DNA from: Minisyncoccota bacterium
Lineage (GTDB): Bacteria; Patescibacteriota; Minisyncoccia; Phycocordibacterales; JABAAK01
Direction of reading: 5' to 3'
Length of the DNA stretch: 64,000 nucleotides
Assembly (NCBI GenBank): GCA_965222235.1
Contig: OZ244939.1
Span: forward strand, 7,924 to 71,923
The position numbers and the translations under genes are program-made. The notes under the pieces are model-generated. The model saw only the letters and a program-made list of their open reading frames with translations, did no database searches and was not told the DNA's origin. Below, piece after piece: positions 850-41,295 of this stretch. The number at the start of each line of letters is the position of its first letter. The stretch's first letter is position 1.

Positions 850-1254
850 TTATTTTTGAAACCAGCGGGAAAAGATAGACCATAGACGGTGGGAAACAGG
901 TCGCACATTTATTTGTTTTTTCTCAGAATAGGGTTTCGCTTTTCGCAGCGCATCTTTTTCTCTGTTTTCCTCAATCTGTTCCTTTGTCCACCTTGGCACA
1001 AACCTAATTGTGTTATTCTCTATCCAATAATGTGATTGGCAAGGAAAGCTCCAATTTCCTATTGAAGGAAATAATGATATTGTTTCTCCATTAAATACTA
1101 ACTGCCAATCTGTTGGTGAAAACGGTGTAATCACTTTATTTCCGCATCCACAACAACATTTATGAATCGCAGTTCTGTAGTCACAGGATATATACAATGT
1201 ATTGTCATCAACGGCAATCGGAATGTTTTTTATAAACTTATATTTCAGTTTCAT
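850..1254 (-). CDS. Small Cys-rich, probably Zn-binding protein of unknown function. It is the third gene of the Ubl/E1-like operon.
   Basis: 134-aa ORF with a cysteine cluster (CDY...HKCCCGCGNK) and FPCQSHYW. Its start overlaps the stop of the E1-like gene by 17 nt, with the same strand and the same low GC. I faintly recall a DUF (DUF6527-like) with a CxCGCG motif linked to E1/E2 operons, but I cannot verify this. Confidence 0.5.
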   Translation of the reverse strand: MKLKYKFIKNIPIAVDDNTLYISCDYRTAIHKCCCGCGNKVITPFSPTDWQLVFNGETISLFPSIGNWSFPCQSHYWIENNTIRFVPRWTKEQIEENREKDALRKAKPYSEKKQINVRPVSHRLWSIFSRWFQK

Positions 1255-2422
1255 TTTTTATCTTGTTTACTATCTTATTCATACTTATATCATATAACGA
1301 TTCGTATTCGTCTATTTGATTACAATAAAATCCGCACATCTTCTTCCACTTTACGACGGCAAGTGCTGCATTAAGTGCATTTATCTCGGCAATCTGAATC
1401 CCTCCATTATACTCATCATCCCTCGCTTCCTCAAAAGAGATATTTTCAAAATAGTGATTGCTCTTGTCCGCTATTGCTGTAGTCCTTACAATTCCTTTGA
1501 GTGACATATCAATTTTATCTATGCCCATCCCCACATCAATACATGGAATTGAAATTTCTTTTAATTTTTGAATGACTTGCTTTTTTGTGCTACCAATGTC
1601 AATACAGAGAAATATAAAATCCATTTTTAACACATCCTCCATCGTTTCACCCGTTACACTTCTCTGATGCGGAACAACACCTCTTCTCATTTTTGAGTAT
1701 TCTTTGTGAAGATGTTCAACCTTTGTTATTTTTTCACCATCAAGTACCCCAAATGCGCTACTACCTGGCATACGAAAAGCGTTATGTTGTAACAATTCGT
1801 CATCATCAAAAAGATGAATCTCTTTCACATGTGTTTTAGATACAAAATCCAATACATACGATCCCGTTCCGCCCAGTCCAACAATACCAATTTTCATATC
1901 CTTTAATTTTTCAGATATCAATACTATTTCTGACCGACTGGAATTTGTATCGGTATAGAAAAAAACAGGATCATCTTCACCCCCTTTGATTGATCTATAA
2001 GTTTTTGCAGTAACAGACGAATCCATCGCTTGTGCTTGATGCTCAATAATTTGCACATATGCCGTTATTTTTTCATAGTAATCTGAATATCCATTTGGTG
2101 GTTTGCTTGAGAAGATGTGATTGACTGTTAGCTCACTTGTCAGCATATTTTCTCCACTTGAATGTCTTATGCTTTCAATGGGGGAACCATTGGCATTGCA
2201 GGGATATTCGCCACAAAAATGAACCGTATGATCTTCAGGTTTCGTCGTTATATCTCCCGACAATTCAAGAGAAGATATCAACATACCTTGTGCAATTTCT
2301 TTCCTCTCATTTACATATGGAATATCAGATACACACAGAAACCCTTCTCTTATCTCAATGTTGTACCCATTATCTCGCAGCTTTTTTAAATCAGGGCTAT
2401 GACTTATCAGTTTTTGTGACAT
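1238..2422 (-). CDS. E1-like ThiF/MoeB-family adenylyltransferase with an N-terminal extension of about 165 aa (candidate fused E2-like domain).
   Basis: Rossmann nucleotide-binding motif KIGIVGLGGTGSYVLDF, followed by an acidic patch (FDDDELLQHNAFR) typical of ThiF/E1 adenylation domains. The N-terminal domain contains HTVHFCGEYPC with candidate catalytic Cys residues. It overlaps the upstream Ubl gene by 26 nt and the downstream Cys-rich gene by 17 nt. Confidence 0.75.
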   Translation of the reverse strand: MSQKLISHSPDLKKLRDNGYNIEIREGFLCVSDIPYVNERKEIAQGMLISSLELSGDITTKPEDHTVHFCGEYPCNANGSPIESIRHSSGENMLTSELTVNHIFSSKPPNGYSDYYEKITAYVQIIEHQAQAMDSSVTAKTYRSIKGGEDDPVFFYTDTNSSRSEIVLISEKLKDMKIGIVGLGGTGSYVLDFVSKTHVKEIHLFDDDELLQHNAFRMPGSSAFGVLDGEKITKVEHLHKEYSKMRRGVVPHQRSVTGETMEDVLKMDFIFLCIDIGSTKKQVIQKLKEISIPCIDVGMGIDKIDMSLKGIVRTTAIADKSNHYFENISFEEARDDEYNGGIQIAEINALNAALAVVKWKKMCGFYCNQIDEYESLYDISMNKIVNKIKNETEI

Positions 2423-2894
2423 TAAAAATCATTCTATTTTGAACCTTCACAGTTTTTCCTTTTATGAGCGACATTCCTTCCGATGATGAATCGTTATAAT
2501 AGACGATAGTGTAAGAAATATCAGGGTTATCATCAATATAAAGAGCACTAACAGATAGATTGATGACCTCTTCATAAGAAATCATTTCTTTGTTCCAATC
2601 TTTTTCCTGTGTATCTACGATTATCGTATAACTATGCTTACCATCATCGGGTTCTATGACAAATGTATCACCCTCTTTAACATCCACCAAATCACCCAAC
2701 GAACCGATACCAGCATTTTTGCTGTATATCACTTTCTTATCGCCACTGTCTGTAATTCTCAAAAGTTTAAAATTTTCAAGGTGTCCCTCTGGTTTTTCAC
2801 CTGCTATGAGAATGTGTTGTACAGAAACAACACTCTTGCCATCTTGCCTAACTTCACGCGGAACTCCGTCAATAATTATCTTTATTGTATCCAT
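2397..2894 (-). CDS. Tandem beta-grasp (ubiquitin-like) 'multi-ubiquitin'-type protein. It is the first gene of the Ubl/E1 operon.
   Basis: 165 aa with two repeats of about 80 aa, each showing a beta-grasp-like pattern (KIIIDGVPREV...GDTFVIEPDDG and YTIIVDTQEKDW...YTIVYYNDSS). It is tightly coupled to the E1-like gene. No C-terminal Gly-Gly is present (the protein ends ...VTKTDKS), which argues against classical conjugation without processing. Confidence 0.55.
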   Translation of the reverse strand: MDTIKIIIDGVPREVRQDGKSVVSVQHILIAGEKPEGHLENFKLLRITDSGDKKVIYSKNAGIGSLGDLVDVKEGDTFVIEPDDGKHSYTIIVDTQEKDWNKEMISYEEVINLSVSALYIDDNPDISYTIVYYNDSSSEGMSLIKGKTVKVQNRMIFNVTKTDKS

Positions 2895-2960: not shown

Positions 2961-4079
2961 GAACACCTGTCATATACCAAGTAATACTGGAGACATATGA
3001 CAAAAGCAAAGAAAAAGAGACGGGAACCGTTCACCCGTCTGAATATTCATGAACGGAGTAGTATTGAAGTGAGATACTGTGCTGACAAGAGATCCCTGCG
3101 GGAGATAGCGAAAGAGTTGGGCAGGTCACCGGGAACCATACATCGGGAAATAGGGGGAAAACCGAGAAAAGGAGTCGGACGGTACTGCGCGCTGAGGGCA
3201 CAGCGGGAAGCAGAGAAAAGGATACACACCCGGGGGAGGAAAGGAGTGCTGACCGACAGAGCACTCCTTGGGTATGTGCGGGAGAAGATGGAGGAAGGAT
3301 GGTCTCCCGAGCAGGTGAGTATTCGTCTTCCCCGGGAGTTTCCGGAGGACACAACCATGCGGGTATCTCATGAGACGATATATACCTTCATATATGCGCA
3401 GATTCACCAAAGCGGACACGGTATCGTGAAACCGGGGTATCTAGACTTACGGTCTCTTCTGCCGAGAAGAAGGAAGAGACGCATACGGCAAGGAGTGAGA
3501 AACACACAGAAAACAGAACGAAGAGCGGCCTTGCCCTCCATAGAGGAGAGACCGGGGATAGAGGGGGTAATCGGTCATTGGGAAGGTGACACCATGCTCT
3601 CAAGGAAAAGCAGCGTTAGGGTAAAGAGTATGAATGAAAAGATGACCGGTCTGGCATTCTTTGAGAAAACAAAAGACGGTACCGCTGAGTCCTGTGACGC
3701 GGCAATCATCAGACGAATGCGCGCTGTCCCTCCGAGATACCGCAAGACCCTCACCCAGGACAGAGGGGCGGAGAATAGGGGGTACCGCACCGTTGAAAAA
3801 GAACTCAGTCTCTCCTGCTACTTCGCCCATCCGTACTGCTCTCATGAAAGAGGATCAAACGAGAACACCAACGGATTGTTCCGTCGGTGTTTCCCGAAGG
3901 GGACTGACTTTGACAAAAGCAATGACCGTGACATTGCCAAGGTTGAGTACCTATTGAATACCCGTCCCAGGAAACGCCTTACTGGTCTGACCCCTTACGA
4001 GGTATTCTACCGCATGACCGGTGTCAATCTCCAGAGGATGGCATATTACAAACTGACAGGTGTTCAATTAGAAGTTTGA
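2961..4079 (+). mobile_element. IS30-family insertion sequence. The terminal inverted repeats begin at 2961 and end at 4065, and the transposase ORF runs 14 nt beyond the right repeat.
   Basis: The 12-bp perfect inverted repeat gaacacctgtca at 2961-2972 matches tgacaggtgttc at 4054-4065, with imperfect extension to about 25 bp. A single 360-aa DDE transposase lies inside. The element's GC content is much higher than the flanking AT-rich island. Confidence 0.8.
2997..4079 (+). CDS. IS30-family DDE transposase.
   Basis: N-terminal HTH region, then the catalytic core with GHWEGDTM, DRGAEN and HPYCSHERGSNENTNGLFRR motifs characteristic of IS30 transposases. The stop codon is TGA. Confidence 0.9.
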   Translation: MTKAKKKRREPFTRLNIHERSSIEVRYCADKRSLREIAKELGRSPGTIHREIGGKPRKGVGRYCALRAQREAEKRIHTRGRKGVLTDRALLGYVREKMEEGWSPEQVSIRLPREFPEDTTMRVSHETIYTFIYAQIHQSGHGIVKPGYLDLRSLLPRRRKRRIRQGVRNTQKTERRAALPSIEERPGIEGVIGHWEGDTMLSRKSSVRVKSMNEKMTGLAFFEKTKDGTAESCDAAIIRRMRAVPPRYRKTLTQDRGAENRGYRTVEKELSLSCYFAHPYCSHERGSNENTNGLFRRCFPKGTDFDKSNDRDIAKVEYLLNTRPRKRLTGLTPYEVFYRMTGVNLQRMAYYKLTGVQLEV

Positions 4080-5192: not shown

Positions 5193-5936
5193 TTGCACAA
5201 AAAAGAGTTTTTAAATGCTATTATTTGTGGTGATGTGCTGGAGATTATGAAGCAAATGCCAGACGAATCAATTGATTTGGTGGTTACGTCACCACCATAT
5301 AATATTAAAAATTCTACAGGTAACGGATTGAAAAACGGGAATGGTGGAAAATGGGCGAATGCTGAATTGCAAAATGGCTATTCACATTATGACGATTGTA
5401 TGCCACATGATGCATATGTGGCGTGGCAGCGAGATTGTTTGAAAGAGATGATGCGCCTTATCCCTGAACACGGTGCAATTTTTTACAACCACAAATGGAG
5501 AGTGCAGAAAGGATTGTTGCAGGATCGACAAGATATTGTTGAAGGATTTCCGGTGCGTCAGGTAATTATTTGGAAGAGAAAGGGCGGTTTTAATTTTAAC
5601 CCTGGATATTTTTTACCCACGTATGAAGTTATTTATTTAATTGCTAGGCCAGCATTTAAATTGCGACCAAAAGCAAATGCTTGTGGTGATGTGTGGGAAT
5701 TCACACAGGAGATGAGTAATCCTCATCCTGCTGCATTTCCGATTGATTTGATAGACCGCATCATTTCTTCAACTGATGCAGGAATTGTTTTGGATCCATT
5801 CATGGGTTCGGGTACTGTCGCGGTGTCAGCTGCTAATTTGAAACGAAAATATGTTGGCATTGATATTTCTCCTGAATATTGTATGTTGGCTGAACAAAGA
5901 GTGCAGCAGTGTCAATCTCAACCAAAACTAATGTAA
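5193..5936 (+). CDS. DNA methyltransferase, beta-class amino-MTase, probably N4-cytosine (N4/N6 methylase family).
   Basis: Motif IV DLVVTSPPY (SPPY) lies N-terminal to motif I (LDPFMGSGTVAV). This is the beta-class order, as in M.PvuII-like enzymes. Confidence 0.85.
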   Translation: MHKKEFLNAIICGDVLEIMKQMPDESIDLVVTSPPYNIKNSTGNGLKNGNGGKWANAELQNGYSHYDDCMPHDAYVAWQRDCLKEMMRLIPEHGAIFYNHKWRVQKGLLQDRQDIVEGFPVRQVIIWKRKGGFNFNPGYFLPTYEVIYLIARPAFKLRPKANACGDVWEFTQEMSNPHPAAFPIDLIDRIISSTDAGIVLDPFMGSGTVAVSAANLKRKYVGIDISPEYCMLAEQRVQQCQSQPKLM

Positions 5937-6087
5937 TATAATGGCTGCAAAGAAATCAAAAATATACACCAAGGAAGAGTTAGTGCAAAAATTAAAAGAA
6001 ATTTCGGCCATGGGATGGGTTCCTAATACACGACATGGTAATGACGGTGGTATCGGTAACACCCTTGAAGACTTGCTCGGTTAGGTA

Positions 6088-6654
6088 CTATGCCCGCTTG
6101 GTGCGACGTCGCCATAGTATGACCACACCGCAACACACCAGTATCAGTGTCATAAGCTTGACTACGCTGTACCTGTACAACGGTTGTTCAGTAGCAGTTG
6201 GTGTAGTGGTCGGTAGAGTTGGGGTGGCATAATTGTTAAGATGTGCCGCTATATCACCTTCCCAACCGGTGGATGGGTGCATGCATATACCGGTCCTTAA
6301 TGTACCGTTATCCTCACGGGCAAACACGACATACTCCTGATTTTCTTCAAAGTGTGCTCCGCATGCGGTACCTTCTGATGGTGTCTCCACAGTAAGCTGA
6401 TTTTTTACCGATCCCTTCCATACCTGAGAAACATCAAACAAAACAGTGATATCACCATACAGTATCTGTTTCTTCGTACCTACGACCCGTCCCATAAAAA
6501 TGGTATCAGTCGTTTCAAAGCTCTCCTGTAAAGATTGCGAACTGCATGAGCAGGCATGTGCAGTCGGCGTTGTATACATAAAAAGAATGAGTGGTATACA
6601 GATACATAGAAAAATAAAAAGTGCTGCCGGCATGTTGATGATTTGTGTAATCAT
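6088..6654 (-). CDS. Secreted TIMP-like (NTR/OB-fold) protein with a Pro/Thr linker and a C-terminal transmembrane anchor.
   Basis: Signal peptide ending ...TPTAHA, then the mature N-terminus CSCSSQSL, which matches the TIMP N-terminal CSC signature. Further resemblance to the TIMP-2 N-domain: SFETTDTIFMGRVVG versus AFCNADVVIRAKAVS, and EGTACGAHFEENQEYVVFAREDNGTLRTGICMHPSTGW versus [40 protein letters not shown]. The C-terminus has LPTTTPTATEQP followed by a hydrophobic helix and an RRRTKRA tail. Confidence 0.6.
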   Translation of the reverse strand: MITQIINMPAALFIFLCICIPLILFMYTTPTAHACSCSSQSLQESFETTDTIFMGRVVGTKKQILYGDITVLFDVSQVWKGSVKNQLTVETPSEGTACGAHFEENQEYVVFAREDNGTLRTGICMHPSTGWEGDIAAHLNNYATPTLPTTTPTATEQPLYRYSVVKLMTLILVCCGVVILWRRRTKRA

Positions 6655-6716: not shown

Positions 6717-6989
6717 CTACCTGAAAAGCCCCAGCAGCCTCGTCTTGTACAGGGATTCCAACAAATCGGATCCCGCGTAGCCGGCGAGTAACGACATTCT
6801 CCAATCTCCTTCGGCAAAAACGGAGGCAATGGCCCCGGAAACGGCGGCGACCAGCAGTGACAGAAGCAGTTTTCCGGGGTGCAGGGGTTCTCCCGCCGCC
6901 CGCTTGGAGATACCCACCAACCCCCGCACCATACCCCCGGCAATACCGGGCAGCAGCATCAATGCTACGGACATGAAATCAACGGGCAT
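6717..6989 (-). CDS. Small two-transmembrane membrane protein, possibly holin-like. Function unknown.
   Basis: 90 aa with two hydrophobic helices (LLPGIAGGMVRGLVGI and LLLSLLVAAVSGAIASVF). An alternative overlapping ORF at 6686..6943 in another frame is less membrane-like. Confidence 0.3.
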   Translation of the reverse strand: MPVDFMSVALMLLPGIAGGMVRGLVGISKRAAGEPLHPGKLLLSLLVAAVSGAIASVFAEGDWRMSLLAGYAGSDLLESLYKTRLLGLFR

Positions 6990-31179: not shown

Positions 31180-32118
31180 ATGAAAACGCTAACTAAGTCC
31201 AGAAATAAAACATTGCACTTAGATGAGAGCGACATGAATTTTCTGGAGAAATATGTCACTTCTATTAGTAAAAAATCTTTATTAACGGACATAGAGAACA
31301 AAATAGTATATCAGGATACTTTTGCCGCACTTGGTTTTTTACCCGATGATTTTGTCAATCTTGTATTTGCTGATCCACCGTATAATATAGATAAAAAGTT
31401 TAATGATGTGGCGTTTAGGAAGATGGATATACGGTCGTATGAAGAATACACGGAACAATGGGTCTCTAAACTAAAAAGAAAACTAACTAAAAATGCTTCG
31501 CTGTATGTTTGTGGTGATTGGCGCTCAAGTACCGCTTTATATAATGTTTTGAGTAAATATTTCATCGTTAGAAACAGGATAACTTTTGAAAGGGAAAAAG
31601 GAAGAGGCGCAAAAACAAATTACAAAAATTGTTCCGAAGATATATTTTTTTGTACAAACTCCAATCACTATGCTTTTAATGTGGACACTATAAAGTTGAG
31701 AAAAAAGGTGGTTGCACCGTATAAAGAAAACGGAAAACCGAAAGATTGGGAATTCGGCTTTGGCGGTATCGGTTACAGAGACACCCATCCTTCCAATATT
31801 TGGACTGACATAACAATTCCGTTTTGGTCTATGAAAGAAAACACGGAGCATCCGACTCAAAAACCGGAAAAATTATTAGCAAAGATAATTTTAGCAAGCT
31901 CAAACAAGAATGATATGGTTCTTGATCCTTTCCTCGGATCAGGAACAACTTCCGTTGTCGCATCAAAGTTGGGAAGACGGTACATTGGTATTGAGGTTGA
32001 TAAAAGATATTGTTTGATTGCACAAAAAAGGTTGCAAGAGGCGGAGAAAGATAAAAATATACAGGGGTATGTTGACGGTGTTTTTTGGGAACGAAATGCA
32101 TTTAATAAGAGTGTATGA
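31180..32118 (+). CDS. DNA methyltransferase, beta-class, probably N6-adenine (N4/N6 methylase family).
   Basis: Motif IV LVFADPPYN (DPPY) lies N-terminal to motif I VLDPFLGSGTTSVVA. The gene is AT-rich, about 33% GC by eye, unlike its neighbours. Confidence 0.85.
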   Translation: MKTLTKSRNKTLHLDESDMNFLEKYVTSISKKSLLTDIENKIVYQDTFAALGFLPDDFVNLVFADPPYNIDKKFNDVAFRKMDIRSYEEYTEQWVSKLKRKLTKNASLYVCGDWRSSTALYNVLSKYFIVRNRITFEREKGRGAKTNYKNCSEDIFFCTNSNHYAFNVDTIKLRKKVVAPYKENGKPKDWEFGFGGIGYRDTHPSNIWTDITIPFWSMKENTEHPTQKPEKLLAKIILASSNKNDMVLDPFLGSGTTSVVASKLGRRYIGIEVDKRYCLIAQKRLQEAEKDKNIQGYVDGVFWERNAFNKSV

Positions 32119-37623: not shown

Positions 37624-39489
37624 TTAATTGATATACAGGACAGACATGACAATCGGCTTCTTTTTTGTCTCGGTGTACAGATAATTCTGTATCTCTCTGT
37701 TTATATTCCTTTTCAGTGTTTCAATGTTGATTGTTTTGTTCTGTTGCATTCCTCTGTCAGCCGCGCGTCTTGCGATAAATCGTACTCTGCCCAAAAGATG
37801 GTGGGATTCTTTGAGATATATAAAGCCGCGTGATATGACATCGGGAGATTTTTTCACCTTTTTTGTTTTCCGGTTAACAAGGAATATAACGACCAGAATG
37901 CCGTTTAACTGCAGTGTTTTTCGATCATTCAGCACAACACTCTGAACCGTGCCGATTGCGTTGCCGTCAACGACGGTGAGTTCGGTCGGCATCGTGTATT
38001 CCTGTTTGGTGATGATTTCCTTTTTTGGATCAATATCTATGATAGAACCGTTGTCCGGCAGGATGGTGTTTTCCTCCGGCATGCCGATACTGTGCAGTAT
38101 TTGCGTATGTGCGGACAGCATGTAGTGGTATCCGTGAATGGGTATAAAGAATGTTGCCCCGATATGCTCATGAATCCATTTGAGCTCGTCACGGTTGGCG
38201 TGTCCGCTGGAGTGGACATCGCTGGTCTGATAGGTAATCAGATTAACGCCGAGACGGGACAGCCGGTCTTTCAGATTCTGCACCGGTTCTTCATTGCCGG
38301 GAATGACCGATGAAGAAAAAACCACGGTGTCATCTTTCCCCAATTTAACATAGCGGTGCTGTTCATGGGACATGCGGTCAAGCGCGCTGAAATTATCTCC
38401 CTGGGCCCCCGTAGCGAGAATCAGCAGCTTTTCTTTCGGGTAATCTCCCATTTTTTCCGCGGGGATAATAGTGTTCATCGGTATTTTCAGCAGACCAAGC
38501 TCCGAAGCGATGGTGAGATTTGTAATCATTGACCGTCCCTGCACGATAACTTTCCTGCCGTTGTTGATGGCGTGTTCAATAACCCGTATCGTTCTCTCTA
38601 TCTGTGAAGAAAATGATGAAAGAATGATGCGGCTTCTGGTCTGATGAATAATTTTTTCGATGGTGTCAATCACTTTATGCTCCGGCAATGAAAAACCGGG
38701 CCGATCAGCGTTGGTTGAATCGGCGAGTGTCAGGAGTATATTCTTTTTTTTGAATACGGAAAATTCCTTTTCTTCTGTTTTATCCACGACACCGTCTGAA
38801 TGTGTCAGTTTCAGATCTCCCGTGTACACGATGGAGCCGGCCGGAGTGTCAATAATGATTCCCATTGAGTCGGGAATGGTATGCGTGACCGCAAAAAATG
38901 TCAGGGTAAAATTCTCCGTCAGCTTGATGACCGAAGCTCCTTCAACCTCGTGATACATAATCGGCTCCTTGCTCTCAAACTCGCCCTGTCTATTTTTAAT
39001 GAGTTCAATACTTAATTTTCGTGAGAAAACAGGCGGGTTTCCTATTTTATCCATCAGTATTGAAATGCCGCCTATGTGATCAAGGTGGGCGTGGGAGATA
39101 ACCAAGCCTCTGATTTTTTCCTTGCGTTCTTCAAGATACTGTACATTCGGCACCAGGAAATCTATGCCGGGCGTGTTGCCTTCCTCGGAAAACTTCAGGC
39201 CGCAATCAAGAAGAAGGATATCATCCTTATATTCAATGCCGTACATATTTTTTCCTATCTCTCCGACACCGCCGAATACCAATATGCGGATTGTACCCGG
39301 TTCCTGTTTCGGGATGGTAAGCGTTGATTTTGCGTCAAACCCGGTGGTTAGTTCCCGCGATCCGATAAGGCCTCCCTGCCGTCGGATTGGTTTTTGGTGG
39401 AGCCCCCGCGGGACCCTCTTCCTTTTCTCCGCGGCATCCTGTCCCGCTTCCTGTTTCTCGGCTGCGCTGTTTTTGTTCTGCTGTGTCAT
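37624..39489 (-). CDS. rnj: Ribonuclease J (metallo-beta-lactamase / beta-CASP RNase), catalytically intact copy.
   Basis: Motif II is intact (LVISHAHLDHIGG, the HxHxDH zinc ligands) and motif I Asp is present (LLDCG). The protein is 621 aa with beta-CASP and C-terminal domains. Confidence 0.9.
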   Translation of the reverse strand: MTQQNKNSAAEKQEAGQDAAEKRKRVPRGLHQKPIRRQGGLIGSRELTTGFDAKSTLTIPKQEPGTIRILVFGGVGEIGKNMYGIEYKDDILLLDCGLKFSEEGNTPGIDFLVPNVQYLEERKEKIRGLVISHAHLDHIGGISILMDKIGNPPVFSRKLSIELIKNRQGEFESKEPIMYHEVEGASVIKLTENFTLTFFAVTHTIPDSMGIIIDTPAGSIVYTGDLKLTHSDGVVDKTEEKEFSVFKKKNILLTLADSTNADRPGFSLPEHKVIDTIEKIIHQTRSRIILSSFSSQIERTIRVIEHAINNGRKVIVQGRSMITNLTIASELGLLKIPMNTIIPAEKMGDYPKEKLLILATGAQGDNFSALDRMSHEQHRYVKLGKDDTVVFSSSVIPGNEEPVQNLKDRLSRLGVNLITYQTSDVHSSGHANRDELKWIHEHIGATFFIPIHGYHYMLSAHTQILHSIGMPEENTILPDNGSIIDIDPKKEIITKQEYTMPTELTVVDGNAIGTVQSVVLNDRKTLQLNGILVVIFLVNRKTKKVKKSPDVISRGFIYLKESHHLLGRVRFIARRAADRGMQQNKTINIETLKRNINREIQNYLYTETKKKPIVMSVLYIN

Positions 39490-39492
39490 ATG

Positions 39493-41295
39493 CTATGTGA
39501 ATAGTACGGGGATAATAATCGGACGCTTATTCGTTTCGTTCATAAGAAAACTCTGTGTATCCTTCTGCACCGCTTTCTTAACGGTATCAATATCAAGCTT
39601 TCCCTGATCCTGGAGAGTCTTTTCAACTGTTTTCTTGATAACAATCCGCGTGCGGTTGATAAGGATGCGTGATTCTTTCAGATAGATGAAACCCCGGGAA
39701 AGAACATCCGGAGATTTTTTTAGGATCAGTTTTTTCTGGTCAATAAATATGACGAGAATTAGAATGCCTTCCTGGCCGAGTGTTTTTCTGTCCTGAATGA
39801 CGACATTTTGGATAAGGGTCGGCGTGTGTCCGTCCACGGATATGCCGGTTGTCGTCAGTTTCTGCTTCTGTCTTTTTATTACCTTTCCGTCGGGACTGAT
39901 GTCAATAATTGATCCGTTGTTCGGTATGACGCATGAATCCGGCGACATACCGATATCACGGAGAATATGTGTGTGAGCGGTGAGCATATAGTGATATCCC
40001 TGCACAGGGATGAAATATTTCGGATTACTGTTTTGATGAACCCAGCGAAGCTCATCCTTATAGGGGTGCTTGCTTGATTTCACATCACTAGTGTCATATG
40101 ATCGTATGATTGCACCGAGACGGGACAGACGATCTTTCAGATTTTGTACGGATCGGGCGTTGGTTTGAATAAACGGAGCGGGGAATATCACCGTATCCTC
40201 CTTCTTGATCGCGGTGTACCGATAGTCATTTTGTGAAATTTTTTCCAACACTTCGTACTCTTCATTTTCCGCTCCGGCGGTGAAGATAACGCTGTTGTCG
40301 GTATCATCGTGTCCAATCTCCTCTATCGGAATTAATGCCTCTTTCGGTACATTCAGCATGCCGCTTTCACAGGCAATCTGCAGAACGGCAAACAGGTGCG
40401 CTCCCTGTATGTATATCTTCCTTCCCATTTTCAGCACGCCCTCAAGAACGGCACTGTTTCTTTTTATTTGAGAAGGGAAGAGGGGGAGAATGGCGCGGTG
40501 CGGGGATTCCTGAATCATTTGTATGACCACCTTGGCGACCTGCTGATCATGGAGTGAGAAACCGTGCCGTTCCGCATTTACCGATCCGGCCAGGGAAAGA
40601 ATGATATCTTTTTCCCGGAGCGGCGCGAATCGCTCCTGCTCCCGGGCACTGACGACTCCTTTTTTGTTTTCAATCTGCATATTGCCGGTGTAGGCGATAC
40701 AACCGGCATCCGTTTCTATAACAACGCCGAGCACACTCGGAGCATTGTCCGTCATGCCGAAAAAGTGCAGAGTCATGTCGTCGGCAATACGCACCGATTC
40801 CGGCTGTTCAACCTCCTGTACCGTGCATGTTTTGGCGTTCCGCATCATGTTCTGGCGGCTCTCAATAATTTTTTTCGTTGCCGAACGGGCATAGACCGGA
40901 GGGTTGCCGATGTCGTGGATAATGTAGGGTATCGCCCCGGTGTGCGTCATTGAGGAGTCAGTCACCACAACGCCCCGGATGTGATTTTTTCTCTCTTTCA
41001 GGTAATCCGTGTTCGGCATGATCGTGTCAATCCCCGGAGTTGCGCTCTCGCCGAACGCCGTGCCGCACTCAAGAAGGATGATTGTGTTGTTATACTCAAC
41101 GGCGTACATATTCTTGCCGATTTCTGAGACACCGCCGAATACCATAACGCGGATTTCACCACGTCTCGCTCTGGTGATGTCAACGGGTTTCTGCTGCTGC
41201 TTATTCTCTCGCTGATGCGGTGCTGATTTCCTCTTTCCTCTGGTGTATGTTTGTGTTGTCGGCATGATGTTGATACGGCTATTGAGCGGCTGCAA
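39493..41295 (-). CDS. Ribonuclease J paralog with degenerate metal-binding motifs (probable pseudo-enzyme, RNase J2-like).
   Basis: Collinear with RNase J (same fold, IGNPPV and GYHYM conserved). Motif II reads VVVTDSSMTHTGA instead of HxHxDH, and motif I reads LLECG instead of LLDCG. A 3-nt gap separates it from the downstream intact copy. Confidence 0.8.
   Translation of the reverse strand: MQPLNSRINIMPTTQTYTRGKRKSAPHQRENKQQQKPVDITRARRGEIRVMVFGGVSEIGKNMYAVEYNNTIILLECGTAFGESATPGIDTIMPNTDYLKERKNHIRGVVVTDSSMTHTGAIPYIIHDIGNPPVYARSATKKIIESRQNMMRNAKTCTVQEVEQPESVRIADDMTLHFFGMTDNAPSVLGVVIETDAGCIAYTGNMQIENKKGVVSAREQERFAPLREKDIILSLAGSVNAERHGFSLHDQQVAKVVIQMIQESPHRAILPLFPSQIKRNSAVLEGVLKMGRKIYIQGAHLFAVLQIACESGMLNVPKEALIPIEEIGHDDTDNSVIFTAGAENEEYEVLEKISQNDYRYTAIKKEDTVIFPAPFIQTNARSVQNLKDRLSRLGAIIRSYDTSDVKSSKHPYKDELRWVHQNSNPKYFIPVQGYHYMLTAHTHILRDIGMSPDSCVIPNNGSIIDISPDGKVIKRQKQKLTTTGISVDGHTPTLIQNVVIQDRKTLGQEGILILVIFIDQKKLILKKSPDVLSRGFIYLKESRILINRTRIVIKKTVEKTLQDQGKLDIDTVKKAVQKDTQSFLMNETNKRPIIIPVLFT

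Follow-up and report, generated by a model that had tools for sequence, protein, structure and literature searches.

A membrane-anchored homologue of the TIMP N-terminal domain in a Minisyncoccota genome, and the large prokaryotic family to which it belongs

The literature regards tissue inhibitors of metalloproteinases (TIMPs) as having originated in animals. A TIMP-like gene in a Minisyncoccota bacterium raises the question of whether the resemblance reflects common descent and, if it does, whether the bacterial protein could inhibit metalloproteases as its animal counterparts do. The gene lies in a 64,000-nucleotide stretch of contig OZ244939.1 (GenBank assembly GCA_965222235.1, positions 7,924 to 71,923), the whole of which is referred to here as the window. 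A first-pass annotation, made by a model from the sequence without database searches, had described an open reading frame (ORF) with a signal peptide ending in Ala-His-Ala, a mature Cys-Ser-Cys-Ser start and a close likeness to the TIMP N-terminal domain. The ORF, the signal peptide and the Cys-Ser-Cys-Ser start are all present at 6088-6654 on the reverse strand, where the frame encodes 188 amino acids (aa) from an ATG that is the earliest start codon past the upstream stop. Homology of this protein to the TIMP N-domain is near certain, and the protein belongs to a prokaryotic family of very large size that shares its architecture; an inhibitory role is the reading of it that, on balance, we favor.

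Homology to the TIMP N-terminal domain

Pfam assigns the protein to the TIMP family, PF00965, at 26.7 bits (E 5.5e-6; curated cutoff, 23.1 bits), with residues 34-125 aligned to positions 2-108 of the 183-position profile, and offers no other credible family beside it. The NTR profile, PF01759, goes unreported even at E<=10. NCBIfam likewise gives no real match, its weak signal-peptidase and Loki-CTERM scores sitting on the hydrophobic segments of the protein. Individual TIMP sequences tell the same story. A phmmer search of the PDB recovers the N-domain of TIMP-3 (3cki_B, E 7.3e-5) in an alignment that pairs Cys35 with chain residue 1, TACG with SLCG, and GIC with GLC, and BLASTP against the TIMP-2 N-domain aligns 101 residues at 23% identity (E 2e-7), running from Cys1 to Cys101 of TIMP-2. 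Four cysteines of the bacterial protein (C35, C37, C98, and C124) align with TIMP C1, C3, C68/72, and C95/101. The first-pass annotation had set TACG.../GICMH against AVCG.../TLCDF by hand, and this pairing agrees with the HMMER, phmmer, and BLASTP alignments. Its phrase "closely resembling" fares less well: the resemblance is beyond chance in the Pfam, phmmer, and BLASTP comparisons, but "closely" is too strong for an identity of about 22-23%.

Fold comparison, which had been set beforehand as a test of the proposal, points in the same direction. An AlphaFold2 model built on 85 family sequences (mean predicted local distance difference test score, pLDDT, 82.7; predicted template modeling score 0.67) gives an OB-type five-stranded beta-barrel with flanking helices, its domain strands spanning residues 51-62, 68-80, 86-92, 107-115, and 118-120 and its helices residues 42-48 and 132-139. 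The best Foldseek match in the PDB is again the TIMP-3 N-domain (3cki_B; E 8e-6, target-normalized template modeling score 0.71, root-mean-square deviation 3.0 over 116 columns). The top 15 PDB matches are all TIMPs, with TIMP-1 and TIMP-2 entries following N-TIMP-3, and the weaker ones are NTR modules: PCOLCE (1uap), the agrin NtA domain (1pxu and 1jc7), meteorin (7tlw), and complement C3/C5. The structural interpretation in the first-pass annotation is therefore supported, and its family assignment also held, as profile searches give TIMP and nothing else.

The features expected of a TIMP reactive edge lie at the predicted start of the mature protein. In TIMPs the N-terminal Cys1-Ser/Thr2-Cys3 segment is the zinc-chelating reactive edge, and its equivalent here is Cys35-Ser36-Cys37. 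The preceding signal peptide combines a hydrophobic core with Pro at -5 and with Ala at both -3 and -1, and corresponds in the AlphaFold2 model to a helix at residues 10-26; its n-region contains no Lys or Arg, and most relatives start with MKK or MRR. The OB domain carries the four family-invariant cysteines (C98 within TACG and C124 within GICMH) along with the motifs VWKG (residues 78-81), ACG..F (97-102), and EYVVFA (107-112). Beyond it, the model reaches its pLDDT minimum in a Pro/Thr-rich linker (10-residue block mean 57), and hydropathy over the last 45 residues peaks at 2.77 in the segment that precedes the basic tail. The linker and the C-terminal hydrophobic anchor of the first-pass annotation are thus real, and they recur in about two thirds of relatives. 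Because linker, transmembrane helix, and basic tail stand in the place of the TIMP C-terminal domain, the protein is probably membrane-tethered; it is predicted to be a type-I membrane protein with the OB domain outside, the outward orientation following from the basic tail by the positive-inside rule. The linker also contains LPTTT (residues 147-151), which is without the Gly of LPXTG and lies about 11-15 residues ahead of the hydrophobic stretch. A few relatives carry LPSTG or LPNTS, and JGI lists one as an LPXTG protein; no sortase gene was found among the window ORFs scanned.

A prokaryotic family and its N-terminal junction

A word-index search of 5.8 billion proteins returned the TIMP-like protein itself only. 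An exhaustive HMMER search with residues 32-145 against 1.84 billion cluster representatives (clusters at 50% identity) recovered 3809 clusters at E<=1e-3, of which 119 matched at E<=1e-10. Most members are 130-250 aa long, and the match begins at about residue 20-30. Named members include Halobacillus, Peribacillus, Metabacillus, Paenibacillus, Paenisporosarcina, and Lysinibacillus; others come from Herpetosiphonaceae, Ardenticatenaceae, Woesearchaeota, Nitrosopumilaceae, and Nitrososphaera. This distribution does not bear out the link to an episymbiotic lifestyle drawn in the first-pass annotation, since family members occur widely among free-living Bacillaceae, Chloroflexota, and archaea.

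Family-wide comparison strengthens the connection to TIMPs. A profile of 40 trimmed domains searched against the PDB matches 15 distinct sequences, all of them TIMP-1, -2, or -3, with N-TIMP-2 the best match (E 7.6e-11) and every alignment starting at chain residue 1. The family motifs [W/Y/F]-K-G and S-A-x-C-G align in this search with MFKG and SAVCG of TIMPs; SAVCG is the C-D connector, which lines the protease cleft. Taken individually, 56 of the 85 full-length members in the alignment match PF00965 and two match PF01759 (E about 0.006). The same residues are invariant in the 40 trimmed domains and in the 85 full-length proteins: the four cysteines, a Phe in strand A, the K-G of WKG, a Gly directly following the third Cys, and, three residues beyond that Gly, another Phe. 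Neither alignment contains a conserved fifth or sixth Cys.

Conservation extends to the junction with the signal peptide. Counts of junctions and anchors were taken from the 150 best representatives of the 3809 clusters. An N-terminal CxC is present in 149 of these (the query's own row included, in which the pattern caught a CIC within the signal peptide). Of the 149, 138 have Ala immediately ahead of the first Cys and 132 have Ala, Val, or Ser at -3; His, Tyr, Phe, Gln, or Trp is usual at -2, and the two cysteines are separated by Ser in 129 and by Thr in 8. A C-terminal hydrophobic stretch followed by Lys/Arg is found in 101 of the 150.

In the window protein, AHA|C is the only good (-3,-1) signal-peptidase I site, and AHA|CSCS places Cys at residue 1 at the sequence level, in line with the cleavage proposed in the first-pass annotation. 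The lipobox [LVI][ASTVI][GAS]C is matched neither by its junction, A-H-A-C, nor by the family consensus, A-[H/Y/F/Q/W]-A-C. A lipoprotein reading of the protein was considered and set aside on account of the junction sequence. Since the family combines Ala at -1 with bulky residues at -2, its junction reads as a signal-peptidase I site without a lipobox, and a free Cys, Cys35 in the present case, should be the first residue after processing, as in TIMPs. Judged by sequence, the features of the reactive site are conserved well beyond what the fold needs.

Not all members share the simple layout. Inspection by eye of seven variant proteins (P0003, P0048, P0002, P0074, P0049, P0016, and P0080) suggests that some contain TIMP-like domains in tandem, two or three per protein, with CxxC or no Cys in place of CSC in the internal copies, and that in others apparent peptidoglycan-binding, SLH, or TonB-plug-like regions replace the transmembrane anchor.

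Several members are already named "Tissue inhibitor of metalloproteinase" in UniRef. The family is thus visible in databases, but it is apparently unstudied: no paper on prokaryotic, bacterial, or archaeal members of the TIMP family (PF00965, MEROPS I35, IPR008993) was found in the literature, and the only bacterial "TIMP-like" protein found there is Tim of Listeria monocytogenes, discussed below.

Weighing an inhibitory role

The window protein is probably, if by no means securely, a surface-tethered TIMP-type inhibitor of zinc metalloproteases in which Cys1 would chelate the zinc, a reading that draws on homology and conservation. The processing, folding, and tethering it involves are predicted from sequence and family conservation, and the inhibition itself and its purpose from homology. 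Signal peptidase I would cut the Sec signal peptide between Ala34 and Cys35, so that the mature chain would start at Cys35 with its alpha-amino group free. Residues 35-142 would form a TIMP/NTR-type OB barrel, in which disulfides Cys35-Cys98 and Cys37-Cys124 would pin the CSCS segment to the barrel; in TIMP structures the corresponding C1-C70 and C3-C99 disulfides hold the N-terminal segment in this way. The Pro/Thr linker, single transmembrane helix, and basic tail would anchor the domain at the outer side of the membrane. There, the amine and carbonyl of Cys1 could chelate the catalytic zinc of a metalloprotease, with Ser2 located at the S1' pocket and the unprimed side occupied by the conserved S-x-A-x-C-G connector. 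With no protease gene close by, the protein would most likely serve to protect the cell surface from secreted metalloproteases, be they its own or foreign, rather than to regulate a dedicated partner. The gene adjoins genes for giant adhesin-like proteins. The strongest argument for inhibition is that the cleavage site, Cys1, and Ser/Thr2 are all near-invariant, which suggests that a free N-terminus is functionally relevant and therefore favors a TIMP-type mechanism over a generic NTR binding module.

Comparison with characterized systems shows how much of the TIMP design is retained. With the N-domain of vertebrate TIMP-1 to -4 (PF00965, MEROPS I35) the protein shares a signal peptide with a cleavage site (predicted here) directly before Cys1, the C-[S/T]-C start, the C1-C70 and C3-C99 cysteines, the [F/Y/W]-[K/R]-G and S-A-x-C-G motifs, and an OB barrel with helices. 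It differs from them in its identity of only 22-23%, and in being prokaryotic and membrane-tethered, whereas TIMPs are soluble or matrix-bound. Nematode and hookworm netrin-domain or TIMP-like secreted proteins also have an N-TIMP-like domain that stands alone, with no TIMP C-terminal domain attached; these invertebrate single-domain proteins are soluble, secreted, and animal, whereas the window protein is prokaryotic, anchored, and part of a separate, much larger sequence cluster.

In the serralysin inhibitors (APRin of Pseudomonas, Inh of Erwinia and Serratia; MEROPS I38), the N-terminal amine reaches the catalytic zinc in a manner analogous to TIMPs. These proteins differ from the window protein in having an eight-stranded barrel, in being soluble and periplasmic, in being encoded in the protease operon, and in having no sequence relationship to it. 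The similar mode of interaction of serralysin inhibitors and TIMPs was pointed out in the study of Listeria Tim (PMC8235301), a TIMP-like lipoprotein that is paired with the metzincin Mtz. Tim resembles TIMPs by predicted structure but "not in sequence", has an N-terminal lipid anchor through the lipobox LTAC, and has its gene immediately behind that of Mtz, by which it is cleaved; the authors of that study came across no previous report of TIMP-like proteins in bacteria (PMC8235301). Tim and the window protein are both bacterial, envelope-anchored, and predicted to have a TIMP-like fold. Unlike Tim, the window protein is homologous to TIMPs in sequence, with a C-terminal anchor, a predicted free Cys1, and no adjacent protease. 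The potempins of Tannerella forsythia are small surface-anchored inhibitors of secreted peptidases, metallopeptidases included (PMC9890683). Their logic is like the one proposed here, a tethered inhibitor at the cell surface, in an unrelated family of outer-membrane lipoproteins that are encoded immediately upstream of their target peptidase genes.

Several observations weigh against inhibition. The third disulfide of the TIMP N-domain (C13-C124) has no counterpart, Glu occupying the position of C13 of TIMP-3, and the six-cysteine C-terminal domain, with its three further disulfides, is absent. The n-region of the signal peptide lacks a basic residue. Many NTR-fold modules are non-inhibitory, and no published inhibition assay on any prokaryotic member was found in the literature. 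Characterized bacterial inhibitors are usually encoded beside their protease, and here no metalloprotease adjoins the gene in the window; the window ORFs scanned include a single metallopeptidase, an HtpX-like M48 protein beside LemA, about 40 kb away. Nor do relatives supply a conserved partner: no peptidase recurs in 10 annotated loci, and no protease family recurs among 127 neighboring ORFs from 28 metagenomic loci, in which the recurrent neighbors are all generic (adh_short 5, NUDIX 4, GNAT 3). Since no protease partner accompanies it, the gene behaves as a stand-alone unit, unlike the characterized inhibitor-protease pairs. The only locus seen with an adjoining metallopeptidase is that of Metabacillus iocasae (L091, 4035-7730), where the TIMP-like gene is divergently adjacent to a gene for an M3 oligoendopeptidase F and is followed directly downstream by two Redoxin/AhpC-TSA genes. 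Thioredoxin-fold genes also lie near a few other relatives (a Redoxin gene about 2.5 kb off in L003 and L090, Thioredoxin_9 in L088), a lead that was dropped when it did not recur among the 127 ORFs of the 28 further loci.

The missing partner would also fit a surface-displayed ligand-binding or adhesion domain of the non-inhibitory NTR type, comparable to agrin NtA, netrin, PCOLCE, or complement C345C. The fold search returns significant matches to PCOLCE, agrin NtA, meteorin, and C3/C5, and the gene stands beside giant Ig-like and FG-GAP surface proteins. The profiles nonetheless choose TIMP, both in the family-wide comparison with PF01759 and in the profile search of the PDB. In non-inhibitory NTR modules, moreover, the first Cys is internal to a larger protein, and a near-invariant signal-peptidase site before Cys1, together with a near-invariant Ser/Thr2, is hard to explain without a role for a free N-terminus; we consider a purely binding module unlikely. 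The prominence of the cysteines invites another thought, that of an extracytoplasmic protein in which four Cys close together in the fold bind metal or cycle between thiol and disulfide. They are the most conserved residues of the family, the few relatives near thioredoxin-fold genes would be in keeping with such a function, and many of the hosts may be without a dedicated disulfide-forming system. But the homologous TIMP cysteines are established to form two disulfides, thioredoxin-fold families are not recurrent neighbors, and neither Pfam nor NCBIfam detects a metal-binding family in the protein, so that metal or redox handling appears quite improbable.

Should Cys35 not be free, because the protein is processed as a lipoprotein by Lgt and Lsp or retains its signal sequence as an uncleaved anchor, the TIMP mechanism could not operate. 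A Cys directly after the signal sequence, an n-region without Lys or Arg, and lipobox-like VSGC or VSAC in a minority of relatives are consistent with this; the T-A-H-A-C of the window protein has His at -2 and Ala at -3 and so does not form a lipobox, the consensus A-[H/Y/F/Q/W]-A|C is typical of signal peptidase I, and the protein already has a C-terminal anchor. We therefore give a blocked N-terminus little credence, less than metal or redox handling. It is least probable of all, and by our estimate very improbable, that the gene is decaying or unexpressed, acquired at the margin of a mobile island and now functionless in this genome. Its composition is atypical (GC 45.3%; 42.9% at third codon positions, GC3), it is next to an IS30-like ORF and a truncated restriction gene, and a scan of its strand for promoters and terminators, limited on the promoter side to the sigma-70 consensus, revealed nothing convincing, with no Shine-Dalgarno sequence recognized upstream either. 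Against decay, the ORF is intact and keeps all family-invariant residues, and an identical protein occurs on contigs from two further sequencing runs.

If prokaryotic members inhibit as the favored TIMP-type mechanism predicts, they would constitute a new and widespread class of prokaryotic metalloprotease inhibitors, with a simple membrane-tethered design for self-protection of the cell surface, and TIMPs would have a different evolutionary origin from the one currently assumed. A 2023 study that sampled metazoans only placed the origin of the TIMP family in the eumetazoan ancestor; thousands of prokaryotic homologues keep the features that inhibition needs. A fuller version of this proposal is that a vast and ancient prokaryotic family of tethered N-TIMPs inhibits zinc metalloproteases through a free Cys1, that the mechanism predates animals, in conflict with the origin given in that study, and that in this bacterium it shields the surface, adhesins included, from host or environmental metalloproteases. 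We put this forward tentatively, as a possibility that we would sooner question than assert. The window gene itself is an ordinary and probably horizontally acquired family member, and its significance derives mainly from the family as a whole and from the evolution of TIMPs.

Genomic setting

The TIMP-like protein is recorded on a contig of 641,294 bp. SecA shows 55-57% identity to its counterparts in Paceibacteria/Parcubacteria metagenome-assembled genomes, which places the organism in that class of the Patescibacteria, and a search of GTDB species genomes with the TIMP-like protein gave no relative. The TIMP-like gene lies between a low-GC stretch of mobile or defense-like character and a high-GC cluster of surface-protein genes (Table 1).

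Table 1. Coordinates of the TIMP-like gene, its protein segments and other features of the window
Feature	Position	Strand	Basis or remark
134-aa Cys-rich protein	850-1254	-	low-GC (~35%) three-gene block
DUF6791 + ThiF/E1-like protein	1238-2422	-	weak PADLOC "E1-E2" matches
Multiubiquitin-domain protein	2397-2894	-	third gene of low-GC block
360-aa ORF, IS30-family transposase by look of sequence	2997-4079	+	GC 51.5%
N4/N6 DNA methylase, then 47-aa MvaI/BcnI-type fragment	5193-6084	+	Type II methyltransferase (PADLOC), E 1e-116
TIMP-like ORF, 188 aa	6088-6654	-	
Basic cytoplasmic tail RRRTKRA, residues 182-188 (predicted)	6091-6111	-	sequence; stop codon 6088-6090
C-terminal transmembrane helix, residues ~162-181 YSVVKLMTLILVCCGVVILW	6112-6171	-	AlphaFold2 helix 161-187, hydropathy
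Pro/Thr-rich linker, residues 143-158 TPTLPTTTPTATEQPL	6181-6228	-	sequence; lowest pLDDT
N-TIMP-like OB-fold domain, residues 35-142 CSCSSQSLQESFETTDTIFMGRVVGTKKQILYGDITVLFDVSQVWKGSVKNQLTVETPSEGTACGAHFEENQEYVVFAREDNGTLRTGICMHPSTGWEGDIAAHLNNY	6229-6552	-	PF00965, AlphaFold2, Foldseek
Predicted mature N-terminus, Cys35-Ser36-Cys37-Ser38	6541-6552	-	HMMER alignment, Cys35 on residue 1 of N-TIMP-3
Signal peptide, residues 1-34 MITQIINMPAALFIFLCICIPLILFMYTTPTAHA	6553-6654	-	sequence, AlphaFold2 helix 10-26, family junction
90-aa hydrophobic ORF	6717-6989	-	62 bp upstream of TIMP-like gene; gene call on Logan contigs
Surface-protein cluster	7053-27506	+	~20 kb of 641-kb genome
Second N4/N6 DNA methylase	31180-32118	+	GC 35.5%
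Two tandem RNase J paralogues	37624-41295	-	621 and 600 aa

In GC and GC3 the gene falls below the majority of the housekeeping genes that follow in the window, among them GroEL, SecA, Obg, and ClpB (GC3 54-65%). Its low GC and GC3, its lack of close relatives, and its place at the edge of the low-GC mobile stretch together suggest horizontal acquisition. PADLOC defense models leave the gene unmatched. The 90-aa ORF upstream of it (GC 59%, GC3 70%) is far from it in composition and has no match in Pfam or PADLOC.

On the low-GC side, the three-gene block looks like a defense-type bacterial ubiquitin-like conjugation operon in a genome of the candidate phyla radiation. The IS30-like ORF that separates this block from the methylase differs in GC from both neighbors. 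The MvaI/BcnI fragment is convergent with the TIMP-like gene and terminates 3 bp short of the stop codon of that gene; it seems that the restriction gene was truncated, which left the methylase an orphan. The surface cluster on the other side encodes a 398-aa protein with LTD and PKD domains that has the same C-terminal transmembrane helix and Lys/Arg tail as the TIMP-like protein, a 3362-aa Big_13 Ig-like protein with long internal repeats and a run of about 15 Gly, and a 2974-aa protein with 19 FG-GAP repeats.

Further along the window, the second of the two tandem RNase J paralogues gives no metallo-beta-lactamase domain match at E<=1e-4. The second N4/N6 DNA methylase gene stands amid genes of higher GC and was probably acquired as well.

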